A stretch of DNA of 46,680 nt, taken from an uncultured Candidatus Saccharibacteria bacterium (GTDB lineage Bacteria > Patescibacteriota > Minisyncoccia > Minisyncoccales > GWA2-38-27). Of this stretch, positions 25,938 to 46,140 are shown piece after piece. Location of the stretch: assembly GCA_964509645.1 (NCBI GenBank), contig CAZDXV010000004.1, forward strand, positions 1 through 46,680. The letters run 5' to 3'. Numbering within the stretch: the stretch's first letter is position 1; every line of letters begins with the position of its first letter. The position numbers and the translations under genes are program-made. Below the pieces are notes generated by a model that saw only the letters and a list, made by a program, of their open reading frames with translations, did not search any database and was not told the origin of the DNA.

Positions 25938-26011
25938 GCGCCCATAGCTCAGCTAGGCAGAGCACCGGCCTTTTAAGCCGTGGGTCGGGGGTTCGATTCC
26001 CTCTGGGCGCA
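25938..26011 (+). tRNA. tRNA-Lys(TTT), CCA not encoded
   Basis: gcgccca/tgggcgc acceptor stem, loop cTTTTaa, GGTTCGATTCC T-arm. Confidence 0.92.
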
Positions 26012-26018
26012 CAGAAAA

Positions 26019-26095
26019 GGGCCCATAGCTCAGTTGGCTAGAGCGCGTGTATGGCATACACGAGGTCGCGAGTTCAAGTCTCGCTGGGTCCACCA
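26019..26095 (+). tRNA. tRNA-Ala(GGC)
   Basis: G3:U70 pair, anticodon loop atGGCat, encoded CCA. Confidence 0.95.
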
Positions 26096-26129: not shown

Positions 26130-26270
26130 TTACAGGGGACTTTTAATATTTTTAAGATTTGGATTTGTTACTTGAGTATAGATTTGTGTTGTTCGGATAT
26201 TTCGATGACCTAAAAGCTCTTGTACGTATCTAGTATCAATACCGTTTTCTAACAAATGTGTTGCGAAGCT
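26130..26270 (-). pseudogene. C-terminal fragment of a tyrosine recombinase (integrase)
   Basis: [46 protein letters not shown]; box II with catalytic Tyr; N-terminus absent. Confidence 0.9.
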
Positions 26271-31895: not shown

Positions 31896-32015
31896 ATGAA
31901 AGAGCTAAAATACCTAATGCAAGAAGACGAATTCGAAGAGACTCAAGATATGTATTTAGACGACGAAGAAGATTTTGAGGGAGAGGACTATGACGAAGAT
32001 TTAGACGAAGAATAA
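31896..32015 (+). CDS. small highly acidic peptide (39 aa), not in ORF track
   Basis: MKELKYLMQEDEFEETQDMYLDDEEDFEGEDYDEDLDEE; own TTGACA/TACAAT promoter near 31796-31824 and own terminator. Confidence 0.65.
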   Translation: MKELKYLMQEDEFEETQDMYLDDEEDFEGEDYDEDLDEE

Positions 32016-32080: not shown

Positions 32081-32401
32081 ATGGACTTTAGAGAAATAGT
32101 AAAAACAATCGCAGAAGCAGCCCGGAATAGAGAAACGGTAATAATTTATTACCCAAAAACAGAAAATACTCCCGAGGGATGGAGAGAAATCGAACCCTAC
32201 AGCTTGGCTAATGACGTAGGGCCTGAGGGAGAGCATGTTATTTACGGAGAAGATATACTTGAGCCGGGTCATATTCTTAACGCTTTTACTGTGGGAAGCG
32301 GAGATAAGCACTGCGACTCTTTTATTCTAGGGAAAATAAAGGAAACCAAAAAAACAGGAAAAAGGTTCAGACCAAGAAAAAACTGGAAGGTAGAGTTTTA
32401 A
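32081..32401 (+). CDS. stand-alone WYL-like domain protein
   Basis: IAEAARNRETVIIYY...WREIEPYSL...DSFILGKIKETKKTGKRFRP resembles the WYL pattern (R.V.P..L / F.L.RI / F). Confidence 0.5.
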   Translation: MDFREIVKTIAEAARNRETVIIYYPKTENTPEGWREIEPYSLANDVGPEGEHVIYGEDILEPGHILNAFTVGSGDKHCDSFILGKIKETKKTGKRFRPRKNWKVEF

Positions 32402-32403
32402 TC

Positions 32404-32432
32404 TTGACAATATTTTTATACTATGATATAAT
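32404..32432 (+). promoter_or_regulatory. consensus sigma70 promoter
   Basis: TTGACA (32404-32409), 17 nt, TGaTATAAT (32427-32432). Confidence 0.85.
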
Positions 32433-32438
32433 ACTTGT

Positions 32439-32657
32439 ATCAGTTCTTTTAAGTTGGCAGCAGGGGAACAAGAACCCTCAACAGGCTATCGAAAGGAGGT
32501 GATAGCAGCCATGAGTTACCACAGCAGTCGTGAGCTGAATCCGTGAACCTCCAGCAGAGAAGGCACGGCCTTCTCATAGGCATCGCGCCAAAGGAGACAT
32601 CATGCCCTGGCCGTGAAAAAACAAAAAGCCCCTTGGGACAACACCAAGGGGCTTTAT
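32439..32657 (+). ncRNA. candidate orphan structured RNA of about 220 nt, family unknown
   Basis: perfect promoter, GC-rich hairpins, terminator at 32625-32655; the only SD-preceded ORFs are 11 and 4 codons. Confidence 0.5.
32625..32655. terminator. terminator, probably bidirectional
   Basis: aaagccccttgg-gacaaca-ccaaggggcttt between convergent units. Confidence 0.8.
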
Positions 32658-32669
32658 TATTGTGCGACA

Positions 32670-33620
32670 TTATAAATCTTTTCCACTATGGTATTTTTTA
32701 TGTATATCTTTTAAGCGTTTATTGGTTACATGGGTGTATATTTGAGTACTGGTAATACTCCTGTGTCCTAAAAATTCCTGTATGGTTCTTAAATCTACCC
32801 CTTTTCCTAAAAGATCTGTGGCCATGCTATGTCTTAATACATGAGGAGTAGTAAATACGGGAATTCCTGATTTAACAGCATATCTTTTAACAGATCTTTC
32901 TATGGTTCTTGCCGTAAGGCGCGAATCAGCATCTTTTTTGCCGGAGTACCTTATAAAGAGAGGCTTTTCTTGGTCTTTTCTTGTTTCTAAATATTTTTTA
33001 ATCCAAGAAAGTGCTCTTTCTGAAAAGTAAACTGTTCTAGGATAATCTCCTTTACCAACTATACTTAATTCAAAATCTTTTTTCTTTTCGATATTTTGAA
33101 ATTGTTCTTTATCAAGAGATACAAGCTCCGCAATCCGTAATCCTGTAGAGAATAAAGTTTCTAAAATAGCTCTATCTCTCAAACCTTCTTTTCTTCTTGT
33201 ATCAGGAGCTTCTAAAAGCTTTTTTATTTGTTCTAAGGTTAAAAATTTTACGGATTTTTCTTTTTTAGCGTCTCTTGGAAGGGATATTTTGTCTGAGGGG
33301 AGTGAATGTATATCTCGGACAGAAAAATAGCTTAAAAGGGCTCTCAGAGCGATTAAATAGTAGTTTTGAGTGCTCTTCTTTAAATTTTTGCCGCTGTTTG
33401 CCTTGTGACGGGAAAGGAAAAGACGGTAGTTCCAAACATCTTCAGAAGTTATTTCGTGCGGCTGTAAATCTTCTTTATTATTTTTTTTAAGCCATAATAC
33501 AAACTTATCCAAGTATCTTTTATAGTTTTCCTGGGTCTTGCTAGATAAACCTTTTTCAACCTCACAGTAGTCTAAAAAGTCTATTATATGTTTTATTATT
33601 GGTTTTTGAGACTTTTCCAT
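32670..33620 (-). CDS. XerC/XerD-like tyrosine recombinase
   Basis: FLDYCEVEKGLS, RDRAILETLFSTGLRIAEL, GKG, TPHVLRHSMAT, LGH, TQIYTHV; ATG 33620 preferred over 33689. Confidence 0.9.
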   Translation of the reverse strand: MEKSQKPIIKHIIDFLDYCEVEKGLSSKTQENYKRYLDKFVLWLKKNNKEDLQPHEITSEDVWNYRLFLSRHKANSGKNLKKSTQNYYLIALRALLSYFSVRDIHSLPSDKISLPRDAKKEKSVKFLTLEQIKKLLEAPDTRRKEGLRDRAILETLFSTGLRIAELVSLDKEQFQNIEKKKDFELSIVGKGDYPRTVYFSERALSWIKKYLETRKDQEKPLFIRYSGKKDADSRLTARTIERSVKRYAVKSGIPVFTTPHVLRHSMATDLLGKGVDLRTIQEFLGHRSITSTQIYTHVTNKRLKDIHKKYHSGKDL

Positions 33621-33751
33621 TATAGTGCTTTTTAAGCAGGTAGAGAATAGCCCTGCTTTAGATACCGCTTTACCTTTATTGTCCGACATTTACTACTTCT
33701 ATAATAATCTACTCCCCTAGGGTCTGTCAAGGAGCTTTTTGTGCAAAAAGT

Positions 33752-41905: not shown

Positions 41906-42138
41906 CATTTACTCCCTATATCGCTATAGAGTATGGACCATATCTTTTCCCGAACGGGAACCTGACGTATGGCCTCTGAGGATTCTTTTAGCTTTCCGCT
42001 AAAAGCCTTTCCTGCTGATTGACCGCTTCAATTGAACTTTTTTACTGCTTTTAAGCGAGTAGTTCAATATACCCGGTGTTTCCAGCATATAGTCAGGTTT
42101 TTTCTTGAAAAATTACTTTCAAGAGCGGCAACTTTCTT
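41906..42138 (-). mobile_element. group I intron at 23S position 1911 (helix 69), 233 nt, no ORF
   Basis: junction ggcggU|aactataac; ends in G; TCAGAGGCC and GATATGGTCC core. Confidence 0.85.
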
Positions 42139-44320
42139 ACCGCCGACGTTCACTGGGGCTTCACTCGCTTAGCTGCTGTCCGAAGACAGCTACCGGCAAG
42201 CTTAACCTTCCAGCACTGGTCAGGTCTCAGCCCCTATACATCCTCTTACGAGTTTAGCAGGGACCTGTGTTTTTGATAAACAGTCGCTAGGGGTACTTTC
42301 GCTGCGGCCCCAATAAAGGGGCAAGGTATATCCCGAAGTTACACCTGCTTTTTTGCCGAGTTCCTTCAGGAGATTTCACCCGTTCACCTTGGCACACTAA
42401 CGCCAACCCACCTGTGTCGGTTTGCGGTACGGTCTCCCTTAATGATAACTTCCAATGAACTTTTCCCGGGAAACTGCTCATTTAGATCTGTTCTGTCGAA
42501 ACAGAACATTTCGCCTGCTCTTGGAAAAACCTTAAACAGGCAACGGGAATCCAATAACCCGCCTAAACTACTAGCTTCCGTCATTCACTGGACTCATTAA
42601 AGGAGGGGCCGGAATATTAACCGGCTGTCCATCGGGTACGCCGTTCAGCTTCCCCTTAGGACCGCCTAACCCTTGGATGATTATCATTGCCAAGGAAACC
42701 TTGGGTTTTCGGTGCATGGGGCTCTCACCCATGTTGCGGTTACTCGTGCCAACATTCTCACTTCTTAAAACTCCACCAAGCCTTACAGCTCGGCTTCAGC
42801 GCTTTAAGAACGCTCCCCTACCTCTTTTATCTAAAAGATAAAAAACCTTATCTTCGGTATCAAGCTTTAGTCCCGGAAATCTTTGGCGCAAAAACCCTTA
42901 ACTAGTAAGCTGTTACGCACTTTTTAAAGGATAGCTGCTTCTAAGCTAACCTCCTAGCTATCCGAGGGATCTTACTTCCTTAGAAACACTTAGCTTGATT
43001 TAGGGACCTTAGATGAAGATCTGGGCTGTTTCCCTTTCGACCATGGAGCTTAGCCCCCACAGTCTGACTGCCTAGCTAAACTTTGCGGTATTCGGAGTTT
43101 GGTTGGAAAGACTGGGCAAAGCCCACGTAATTCCATCCAGTGCTCTACCCCCGCAAGTAAACTAAACGCTAGCCCTAAAGCTATTTCGGGGAGAACCAGC
43201 TATTCCCAAGCTCGATTAGCTTTTCACTTCTTACCACAGCTCATCCTAAAGTGTTGCACGACTTACAGGTTCGGGCCTCCCCTTGTCTTTCGACAAGGTT
43301 CACCCTGGCCATGGCAAGCTCGCTTGGCTTCGGGTCCTTAGCATCTTCTAAAGATTGCGCTATTAACACTCGGTTTCCCTTAGCCTTCGGGGCGGAACCC
43401 CTTAGACAAAAAGAAGATACTAAGACTCGTTGGCTCATTCTGCAAAAGGCACGCCGTCACTCTGTAAACAGAGCTCCGACTCCTTGTAAGCATGATGGTT
43501 TCAGGTTCTATTTCACCGGGGTCAACCCCCTACTTTTCACCTTTCCCTCACGGTACTGGTTCGCTATCGGTGATATTGAGTATTTAGCCTTGGCCGGTTA
43601 GTCCGGCCTGCTTCCCACAGGGCTTTCTTTCCCCATGGTACTTAAGTAAGACAACAAGGAGCATAAAGAAATTTTCAAATACGGGGCTTTTACCCTCTCT
43701 GGCCGCCCTTTCCAGGGTCGTTCTTTTAACCTCTTTAACATTCTCCCTCAGCAAGAATCCTTCGCCGTTCAAAAAAACAGCAAAGGATGCTCCTGACGTT
43801 ATCCCCTTGCAACCCTCACAAAAAAGTGAGTTTGGGCTTTTCCCTTTTCGCTCGCCGCTACTAAGAGAATAAACTTCGTTCTCTTTTCCTCCGCTTACTG
43901 AGATGTTTCACTTCAGCGGGTTAGCTCCAGACATTAAAGCCTGGTATCTATGCTTTATCACATAGATGGGTTTCCCCATTGGGAAATCTTCGGATCAAAG
44001 GTTGCTAGACACCTACCCGAAGCTTATCGCAGTCACGCCACGTCCTTCATCGCCTCAATATCCCAGGGCATCCACCATCTGCTTCTAAAAAATTGCTTTC
44101 TTTTGTTAAAGAAAGCTAGAAAAACTTGACTAACAATTAATAACTGTAATTCTCCATATTCATCTTAGAGGTTATGACTCTAAGAATTTTCAAAGTTCCT
44201 CATTCTGACAATCAAAAAACCGCTCTGAAGCGGTCTAAACATTCCACAAAAATAGGCTGTTGTTTAACCGCTTCTTTTGTTGGGACGAGTTTTCTCGTTA
44301 CTTATCATAACTACTTTTCA

Positions 44321-45516: not shown

Positions 45517-45701
45517 CCTCAACGGGTTCAATTCCTAAAAGTTGCTCCGACTATCAAAATAATCGAAATTTTAGGTTCCTCGATTAATGCCTTATCGTTG
45601 AAAACAGAATTCTACGTTCTCAACAATAGCCGACACAAACAACTAAAAAAGTTGTTTTGTTTAATTGATCCACGAGCAGGTTCCCCTACCCGTGCCTTGT
45701 T

Positions 45702-46055
45702 CATGTTATTCCCTATATCGCTATAGAGCATGGACTATATCACCATCCTCTTTCTTAGAGTTTTTACTTTTCTCGGGTGCCAAGAACTATAAGTTCCATC
45801 ATGCAAGCAACCGAGAAGATAAGCTTTAATTACTTTCCTAGAAAGAGGAGCTCGGCGTGTAGTCTCTGAGGGGTCTATCTGATCTAATTTCAGAAAAAGA
45901 CTTCCCTGCTGATTAACTGCATTAGTAGCATTTTTACTTATGCTATCCATTAAATAATTATAACATAAGTAGCTCTAAATACTCAGTCTTTCCAGCATAT
46001 AGCCGAGTTTTTCCCTAAGATCTCTCTCAGGGGTCGCAACATGCAGATTGCATCA
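45702..46055 (-). mobile_element. group I intron at 16S position 1498, 354 nt, with decayed LAGLIDADG remnant
   Basis: junction aagtcgU|aacaagg; ends in G; TCAGAGACT and GATATAGTCC; remnant KAYLLGCLHDGT. Confidence 0.88.
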
Positions 46056-46140
46056 ACGACTTCATCCCTATTACTGACCTTACCTTCGGCCTTCTAAAGA
46101 AGGACTTCGGGTACTGTCAGCTCTCTTGATGTGACGGGCG

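Follow-up and report, generated by a model that had tools for sequence, protein, structure and literature searches.

A possible mRNA cassette of mini open reading frames, led by a canonical Shine-Dalgarno sequence, beside a tyrosine recombinase gene in a bacterium without the anti-Shine-Dalgarno

The window analyzed here, 46,680 nt from an uncultured Candidatus Saccharibacteria bacterium (assembly GCA_964509645.1, contig CAZDXV010000004.1, positions 1 to 46,680 of the forward strand), contains at 32404-32657 a small element with a perfect Shine-Dalgarno (SD) sequence in an organism whose 16S rRNA lacks the anti-SD. From sequence comparisons we suggest, with about as much confidence as doubt, that this element is a self-contained mRNA cassette of mini open reading frames (mini-ORFs), that it belongs to a family-wide class of leaders with a canonical SD, and that it lies at a recombinase-associated hot spot. 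A consensus promoter would start a transcript of about 215 nt with a BoxA-like GUUCUUU at its 5' end; GAAAGGAGGUGA, a canonical extended SD, would then open, through an AUG 11 nt past GGAGG, an ORF of 11 codons, and a GC-rich hairpin spacer, a second SD with the ORF MPWP, and a bidirectional terminator would complete the RNA. If the unit is transcribed and its mini-ORFs are translated, as this arrangement implies, the output would be either the act of translating them, in the style of a leader peptide, or a very small peptide. On this reading the cassette would have arrived by site-specific recombination. The anatomy, the conserved order of modules, the link of SD to start codon throughout the class, and the absence of the anti-SD are direct observations. 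The comparisons drew on 61 relatives for the DNA search, 39 genomes of the family, and 251 genomes of the order; below, G000 is the source genome, G001 and G002 are its congeners (genus g1), and G011 belongs to another genus. The features of the element are as follows.

32404-32409 and 32427-32432, forward strand: sigma-70 consensus promoter, TTGACA and TATAAT separated by a 17-nt spacer with TG (12/12 hexamer matches)
32443-32449, forward strand: GTTCTTT, BoxA-like, where the RNA is predicted to begin (from sequence)
32466-32479, forward strand: 14-mer GAACAAGAACCCTC, also present in genome G018, in the leader of another cassette that occupies this slot there
32485-32490 and 32501-32506, forward strand: hairpin GCTATC/GATAGC, with the loop GAAAGGAGGT at 32491-32500 (sequence and minimum free energy (MFE) fold)
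32511-32546, forward strand: mini-ORF A, MSYHSSRELNP, 11 codons, its ATG 11 nt after GGAGG
32547-32552, forward strand: ACCTCC, within the GC-rich spacer at 32547-32575 (from sequence)
32557-32575, forward strand: perfect hairpin GAGAAGGC-ACG-GCCTTCTC (sequence and fold)
32590-32596 and 32602-32616, forward strand: second SD (SD2), AAAGGAG, and mini-ORF B, MPWP (from sequence)
32625-32655, both strands: bidirectional intrinsic terminator, 12 pairs (7 G-C) with a 7-nt loop, common to this unit and the convergent recombinase gene

The initial annotation had listed the consensus promoter, the strong terminator, the GC-rich stretch between them, the GTTCTTT, the GCTATC/GATAGC loop, the ACCTCC, the GAGAAGGC/GCCTTCTC hairpin, and the two SD-led mini-ORFs, and each of these was found where it had been placed. 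The first SD (SD1) is the loop sequence GAAAGGAGGT, the longer form of which is GAAAGGAGGTGA (32491-32502). Between 31800 and 33200 there are four promoter-like matches, only one of them 12/12; shuffled sequences gave 3.3 +/- 1.6 matches. GC content is 0.51 over 32430-32609 and 0.29-0.45 in neighboring segments. No gene follows on the sense strand, the next gene being convergent, and of the two T-runs of the terminator, that of the minus strand (TTGTTTTTTC) is the better, that of the plus strand (ATTATTGTGC) being weak. Both mini-ORFs terminate with proline and a stop, as NP-TGA and WP-TGA.

The DNA search gave matches in six of the 61 relatives, with the unit itself only in G001 and G002, and a single metagenome scan added one contig, identical to the G001 copy. 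A probable fourth homologue lies in G011 (L106:1432-1735), where it adjoins a convergent 5S rRNA gene. In these four genomes, three species of one genus and a member of another, the modules keep one order: promoter, leader, GAAAGGAGGU, an AUG 9-11 nt on, an ORF of 11-17 codons, a GC-rich hairpin spacer, the ORF led by SD2, the terminator, and after it the 12-bp repeat that goes with the one intact tyrosine recombinase gene. The 10-mer GAAAGGAGGT is invariant at 10/10 positions in G000, G001, G002, and G011, its flanks diverging with large indels, and an ATG follows GGAGG by 9-11 nt in 4/4 homologues. The promoter of G001 has identical hexamers and a near-identical spacer; the G002 contig ends inside the promoter. 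A second SD with an ORF of 4 or 7 codons is present in 3/4 homologues: MPWP of G001 differs by one synonymous change (CCC to CCT) and has TAG for TGA, in surroundings that diverge, and G011 has a 7-codon ORF at the place of ORF B. In all four the terminator has the form AAAGCCCC...GGGGCTTT, and ATTGTG(C/A)(G/A)ACA comes after it.

Much else in the element varies. The GCTATC/GATAGC hairpin is absent from G001, G002, and G011, so that the display of the SD in a loop is specific to G000, and the ACCTCC partner is likewise not kept in G001 or G011. GTTCTTT is present in G000, G002, and G011 and missing from G001. A GCCGGC-like box occurs in the GC-rich stretch of 3/4 homologues, and each homologue has a strong hairpin, of different sequence, between the mini-ORFs or before the terminator. 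The counterparts of ORF A have 14 (G002), 14 (G001), and 17 (G011) codons and show little peptide conservation. The bodies differ by large indels, each pair of congeners sharing a different segment. Judging from these alignments, selection is keeping the promoter, both SD-ATG modules, and the terminator, and not a fold; since SD-AUG spacing and mini-ORF layout are conserved, the element behaves like an mRNA leader.

Two other readings of the coding potential were rejected. The only longer ORF in the element is antisense (73 aa, 32449-32670, beginning with the 12-bp repeat described below), and read by hand it is shortened to 23 codons in G001 and to 8 in G002. Recoding of TGA was considered as well: in one frame that G001 and G002 share, every stop is TGA, yet ordinary genes are intact under table 11.

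Searches of the 39 family genomes for GAAAGGAGGTRA found 60 sites in 28 of them, against 13 for the reversed control. An ATG stands 4-10 nt downstream at 40/60 sites (41 matches in 22/39 genomes; control 0), whereas base composition arithmetic gives an expected share of about 12% at that spacing. Because the SD of our element is a member of this family-wide leader class, it is better understood as a start-site or leader signal than as the seed of a small RNA (sRNA) on a scaffold. At 30 loci (31 sites) examined in detail, the ORFs behind the SD have 11 to 438 codons, mostly fewer than 110, and are mostly small orphans, several with Cys-rich or acidic ends; some of the SDs precede ordinary cell-internal genes, among them those of a radical SAM enzyme, a 200-aa ORF, and a 227-aa ORF. 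G000 itself has three occurrences of AAGGAGGTGA, in this element, in a second small unit on contig C6, and inside a coding stretch. It also shows a weak peak of AAGGAG 6-7 nt before ATG.

The second unit, at C6:11250-11480 (L079/L128), comprises a strong promoter, GATCTTTGAAAA, the identical GAAAGGAGGTGATAACTATG, a highly acidic, GC-rich ORF of 36 aa, and a terminator. In its orthologue on contig C5 of G003 (L112), the 20-nt stretch from SD to ATG is identical. Between the two genomes the 36-aa ORF has in-frame indels (9 and 6 nt) and synonymous changes; its frame is thus kept and it is clearly coding, which means that at least some of the SD-led ORFs are translated genes. Another unit of G000, at C1:5460-5900 (L172), has a promoter, GTTCTTTTAAAAAAGAAAGGAGG, a 7-codon ORF MKMPEGP (again Pro-stop), an SD-led GC-rich ORF of 84 codons, and a terminator, which by its sequence is an upstream mini-ORF layout. 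Elsewhere in the class, many canonical-SD leaders precede ORFs of 36-57 aa with Cys-rich C-termini (L108, L113, L114, L116, L117, L119, L120, and L125), the L125 ORF lying directly downstream of a radical SAM gene. Such Cys-rich small ORFs could encode precursor peptides like those of ribosomally synthesized and post-translationally modified peptides.

The 16S tail of G000 reads GGATCAATTAAAC and has no CCTCC, and CCTCC is missing after GGATCA in 17/17 genomes of the order in which the 3' end of the 16S is assembled, in line with the early observation that the 16S here lacks an anti-SD. Among these tails (window 45650-45686, reverse strand, and L086-L102), 7/17 read GGATCATTTC, as if CCTCC had been excised from GGATCACCTCCTTTC. 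Loss of the anti-SD is described for part of the Parcubacteria, and SD helices are thought not to form in those lineages (Tsurumaki et al., 2022, RNA 28:1041, PMC9297842). That work resembles ours in the 16S without CCUCC; it differs in that, its supplementary tables not being covered here, it treats an rRNA trait only and makes no mention of SD-led genes. With the same limit as to those tables, our literature searches yielded no paper on perfect SDs kept without an anti-SD. In the rRNA operon of G000, CCTCC occurs neither in the 16S part nor in the spacer or introns, and only three times in all, at conserved sites inside the 23S. A trans-encoded or relocated anti-SD was rejected: none was found in the rRNA operon or among the CCTCCTT and ACCTCC sites outside long ORFs, and GGATCACCTCC on contig C10 lies antisense to codons for K-K-G-G-D-P. 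The tail GGAUCAUUUC, present in the 7/17 genomes, could by hand be paired with GAGGUGAU at 8 positions, including 2 G-U pairs, and 17/31 leader sites in the examined loci read GGAGGTGAT; residual pairing of this kind is an idea and not a result.

The neighbors of the element and the repeat that marks its downstream side are listed here.

32081-32401, forward strand: gene for a WYL-domain-only protein of 106 aa, the upstream neighbor, not part of the unit (Pfam WYL, E 3e-4)
32670-33689, reverse strand: gene for a tyrosine recombinase of 339 aa, the convergent downstream neighbor (Phage_integrase, E 8e-39, with a SAM-like N domain)
32659-32670, reverse strand: 3' copy of a 12-bp repeat, ATGTCGCACAAT, its first base overlapping the recombinase stop (TAATG)
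33678-33689, reverse strand: 5' copy of the 12-bp repeat, ATGTCGGACAAT, which is the start of the recombinase gene (from sequence)

The repeat thus forms direct copies that bracket the recombinase gene and include its own start codon (ATGTCG[G/C]ACAAT). Its 11-mer ATTGTGCGACA was found in 24/39 family genomes (one match for the reversed control), typically with one copy at the recombinase start and one beyond the stop. G009 (L163, C1:44500-50500) has 6 copies in 3.3 kb around the recombinase, and direct copies flank a pilin-like gene there; G018 (L085) has 3. As far as its sequence and placing tell, the repeat may serve recombination, as a dif-like site or as a site for cassettes. A whole-genome search of G000 for PF00589 gave two matches, one being this recombinase and the other a fragment within an open frame of 59 aa; that ours is the only intact recombinase of the genome suggests an Xer-like enzyme with an adjacent site, and XerS/difSL and XerH/difH are analogues of that arrangement. 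The fragment (window 26166-26270, reverse strand, 44.6 bits) lies directly after tRNA-Lys and tRNA-Ala (25938-26095) and looks, from its sequence, like the remnant of an integrated element.

What stands after the WYL gene, which marks the slot, or before the repeat differs among genomes. There is no cassette in G004 and G023. In G018 an orphan ORF of 104 aa, known from 1/251 genomes, stands behind a leader that shares GAACAAGAACCCTC (14/14 identical; blastn-short E 0.001 in a tiny database), and there is a second SD-led ORF of 130 aa. G033 has a promoter, an SD, a 6-codon ORF, and a terminator, all missing from its sister G007, and several genera have an acidic small-protein gene. Pfam assigned no family to 8/9 proteins tested. 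The pattern looks like that of an insertion hot spot, in which other genera carry other small promoter-plus-SD cassettes. The WYL match itself, at 21.1 bits, is slightly below the cut-off of 21.8; homologues of the protein occur in 24/61 relatives with 46-83% identity, and the DNA 3' of the gene differs between genera. The start of the WYL gene appears leaderless, with TAGAAT 6 nt before ATG. At 31896-32015 of the window there is a very acidic ORF of 39 aa with its own terminator, which recurs beside the recombinase repeat in other genera (L062, L064, L065, and L066).

A broader proposal, which we put forward tentatively and with considerable doubt, is that the canonical extended SD, often with an upstream GUUCUUU, is an expression signal independent of the 16S anti-SD, and that it marks a mobile pool of mini-genes captured by an Xer-like recombinase at the 12-bp repeat, somewhat as in integrons or dif modules; our unit would then encode tiny peptides or a regulatory RNA. 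The SD could in that case be read by another factor or through residual pairing to the GAUCA(UUUC) tail.

Several observations weigh against the mini-ORF cassette as we have proposed it. Peptide A is not conserved, reading MSYHSSRELNP, MIYRSSRRWSFIMK, MIGREQQYLYHRYD, and MNVALSQCEYKYNYIDD in the four homologues, and the frame of a conserved CAGCAGT in G001 is not the one it has in G000 and G002, suggesting constraint at the nucleotide level. ORF B is absent from G002, and the mosaic of indels also fits a decaying sequence. GGAGG at -18 to -4 precedes 4/456 long ORFs of G000 and 5/456 in a control window, so that no SD use is apparent there, and the G000 tail GGAUCAAUUAAAC pairs with only about 4 nt (UGAU) of the SD motif. 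Finally, a single repeat copy flanks the unit, with none between the WYL stop and the promoter; insertion by recombination is for this reason only inferred.

Comparison with known RNA families left the element without a match, as first supposed: Rfam 15 at the gathering threshold returned nothing for 32404-32657, and 6S, signal recognition particle (SRP), and transfer-messenger RNA (tmRNA) identities were rejected. In E-value mode the best Rfam match scored 24.8 bits against a cut-off of 55, and 15/17 listed matches overlap the terminator; these sub-threshold matches are chance. Individually, a 6S RNA was dropped with no model match genome-wide and a fold that is not a closed rod, and a tmRNA or tRNA with none found in the element by ARAGORN. 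An AGCAGCC/CAGG segment, which we took to resemble SRP helix 8, was likewise set aside, with no SRP model match and Ffh/FtsY not found. A template repeat of a diversity-generating retroelement was rejected after blastn (word size 7) against the whole genome gave only terminator- or promoter-like matches of up to 49 nt, as was phage origin after a blastn 'distant' search of 50,697 phage records gave no match. The AAGCCCC...GGGGCTT hairpins (14 strand-hits at 7 places) are ordinary terminators and not a special cassette terminator.

The initial annotation had also proposed an undescribed structured sRNA or a GGA-type protein sponge, and neither idea was supported. The fold of the whole transcript has a z-score of -4.01, which is owed to the terminator; without it, the body (32440-32620) has a z-score of -0.84, and 41/200 shuffles fold equally well. 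RNAalifold on the four homologues gave a consensus of 11 pairs, all in the terminator; the body aligns so poorly that a shifted common structure could escape the method. A search for CsrA (PF02599) gave no matches, and the one GGA in a hairpin loop is peculiar to G000. An sRNA could still act in trans with GAAAGGAGGUGA as seed or protein-binding site, left free since there is no titration by the 30S subunit, and with incidental mini-ORFs. The strong promoter and terminator with no sense gene downstream, the GC-rich island in an AT-rich genome, the absence of a conserved peptide while some nucleotides are conserved out of frame, and the loop that presents the motif in G000 would all suit such an RNA. 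The lack of a conserved hairpin or of structure outside the terminator speaks against it, however, as does the ATG at SD-like spacing both in the homologues and at the 40/60 family sites; no complementary RNA stood out among the CCTCCTT and ACCTCC sites outside long ORFs. We regard it as unlikely. Somewhat less unlikely, in our estimate, is that the element is a remnant, in decay and without function, of a longer, GC-rich gene of cassette type that once filled the slot, and that only its promoter, first SD-ATG, and shared terminator can still be recognized. The internal segment in common differs from one pair of g1 genomes to the next, as if through lineage-specific deletions, G018 has a full ORF of 104 aa behind the same 14-mer in the same slot, cassette ORFs here are orphans, and the body shows no excess structure. 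Against a remnant stand a 12/12 promoter with a near-identical spacer in G001, an SD1 invariant in four genomes of two genera, a second SD, mini-ORF, and hairpin in the same order at another locus in G011, and only silent changes in MPWP. A tblastx comparison found no trace of the G018 protein (best match 13 aa, E 1.4), and descent of the element from that protein's gene was rejected.

Attenuation offers a further explanation, in which a leader peptide would gate the passage of convergent, antisense transcripts into the recombinase gene, in that ribosomes held up at the Pro-stop mini-ORFs would alter formation of the terminator. A C-terminal proline slows termination, and the element has two Pro-stop mini-ORFs, a stop of MPWP 8 nt before the terminator stem, a weak T-run on the plus strand, and an alternative pairing of CACGGCC (32564-32570) with GGCCGTG (32609-32615). 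We nevertheless find this quite improbable: the MPWP stop is about 50 nt from the terminator in G001, G002 has no ORF B to pause on, the G011 unit faces a 5S rRNA gene and not a recombinase, and there is no regulated sense gene downstream. The suggestion that the RNA is aimed at the SD-reading ribosomes of a host cell fared worst and is in our view highly improbable. The motif is a perfect complement of the canonical 16S tail that the order lacks, and bacteria of the candidate phyla radiation (CPR) are thought to be symbionts (PMC4508563). Nothing indicates export, however, no signal or machinery for it being linked to the unit; the same SD precedes ordinary intracellular enzymes and the frame-kept small acidic ORF of C6, and the unit encodes ORFs of 11 and 4 codons only.

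The GTTCTTT of the element recurs in the SD leader class. Of 31 canonical-SD leaders in the family, 11 have G[TC]TCTTT in the 60 nt upstream, 4-50 nt before the SD, against 0/31 for the reversed motif and 2/26 for distal windows. Throughout the order, KTTCTTT-N3-33-GAAAGGAGGT gave 42 matches in 37/251 genomes versus about 19 for the reversed control, an enrichment of merely about twofold because the TTTCTTT half is common. For suhB-type leaders, which involve the Nus complex, a BoxA consensus GYTCTTTAANA within 50 nt of the start codon is described (Baniulyte et al., 2017, 10.1101/091223). G[TC]TCTTT fits the first seven positions of that consensus near an SD, and some family leaders match 11/11 positions, for example GTTCTTTAATA in G015 and G070; the motif of our element, GTTCTTTTAAG, matches only 9/11, however, and the G001 copy is without it. 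NusB is encoded in G000 (C2:20921-21310, 121 bits). The 16S leader (C23:2531) and the 16S-23S spacer (window 44198, reverse strand) both carry GAACTTTGA(C/A)AA, which by sequence is probably the rRNA BoxA of this organism and differs from the mRNA-leader GTTCTTT at positions 2-3. In RNA form, the mRNA leader has GUUCUUUUAAG and the rRNA has GAACUUUGA(C/A)AA, two different motifs, and BoxA identity of GTTCTTT is therefore a candidate only. UCUUUU can by hand also pair with AAAGGA, a pairing predicted in the folds of G002 and G011 and not in that of G000.

The element can be set beside several known systems. Leader peptides and upstream mini-ORFs on short transcripts are found in trp/tna-type attenuators, which it resembles in its SD-led ORFs of a few codons, its hairpins, and its terminator, the 7-codon ORF before the 84-codon ORF at C1:5460-5900 being a further parallel; unlike them, it has no downstream sense gene, no evident regulatory codons, and no conserved alternative hairpins. 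Integron cassettes, Xer/dif modules, and integrative mobile elements exploiting Xer (IMEX) are small mobile units with a tyrosine recombinase and short sites, and our mobile-looking unit likewise has a gene of this kind and a short repeat as neighbors. It differs from these systems in having its own 12/12 promoter and terminator, whereas an integron ORF is promoterless and expressed from a platform promoter, and in that there is one adjoining site copy of 12-13 bp without clear inverted arms, a convergent recombinase, and no junction seen. Sponges such as CsrB and RsmZ have several conserved loop GGAs and a CsrA/RsmA partner; G000 shares with them a GGA within a hairpin loop, but this is a single, non-conserved loop, and CsrA was not found. 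The STAB-SD of Bacillus thuringiensis cry3A, a 5' mRNA stabilizer that binds the 16S 3' end (reviewed in PMC4113751), is similarly a perfect SD-like sequence near a 5' end, which in cry3A is that of a highly expressed transcript and need not start translation. Here, in contrast, the 16S tail cannot pair with it and an ATG follows at start-site spacing.

Further observations concern the genome and the samples. G000 comprises 616 kb in 35 contigs, is rated 98% complete, and has a GC content of 36.8% (0.368); the window is the entire contig C4. Its bacterial rRNA genes contain group I introns by Rfam, in the 23S (window 41914-42148, reverse strand) and near the 16S 3' end (45711-46073, reverse strand), at 79 and 86 bits, and the 16S insertions contain open frames. 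The tmRNA (C7) and the RNase P RNA (C1) lie away from the element. The 6S and SRP RNA models gave no match anywhere in G000, and Ffh/FtsY were not found there (PF02978, PF00448, and TIGR00959 gave no real match). Across the whole of G000 and 25 relatives, an SRP54-type GTPase (Ffh, FtsY), an SRP_SPB domain, and SRP RNA were all not found; in these 26 genomes of the order, PF00448 gave weak partial matches in 5 only (17-21 bits, at most 87/196 profile positions). In agreement with this, ffh and ffs are both reported to be missing from Parcubacteria (Nelson and Stegen, 2015, PMC4508563).

At C2:17513-17727 (reverse strand; L171:215-428) a candidate structured noncoding RNA follows a TTGACA promoter and begins GTTCTTTAAG; it has a 13-bp closing helix, an MFE of -81.8 kcal/mol, and a z-score of -3.44, and Rfam gave only a 22.7-bit chance match. 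This RNA, possibly 6S-like, is a better sRNA candidate than the element at 32404-32657. At 245-919 the window encodes a secreted protein of 224 aa with a PEP-CTERM motif, a sorting signal unusual for CPR bacteria, in DNA with a GC content of 0.52 and behind a purine-rich SD-like leader. The genome belongs to a microbial-mat community, and no RNA run was listed as containing the locus. In DNA contigs from 4 runs of one study, the element is identical in the X3 and X4 pieces, and one X1 contig has 5 base differences and 1 insertion in 32452-32466, near the contig end. Among the contigs listed for these runs, in which rare forms would be invisible, none joined one repeat copy to the other.

The locus itself is a modest example, with at most two tiny peptides as its product. 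What extends beyond it is that, here and in its 60 relatives across the family, 12 nt perfectly complementary to the lost 16S tail are kept at start-site spacing before a small set of genes, and that they are invariant across genera while the neighboring bases change. Either this sequence has a non-classical reader, or it serves another role, in leader folding, in Nus-type control, or in mRNA stability. Leaders of this class may thus be an entry point to how translation starts on ribosomes that have no anti-SD.

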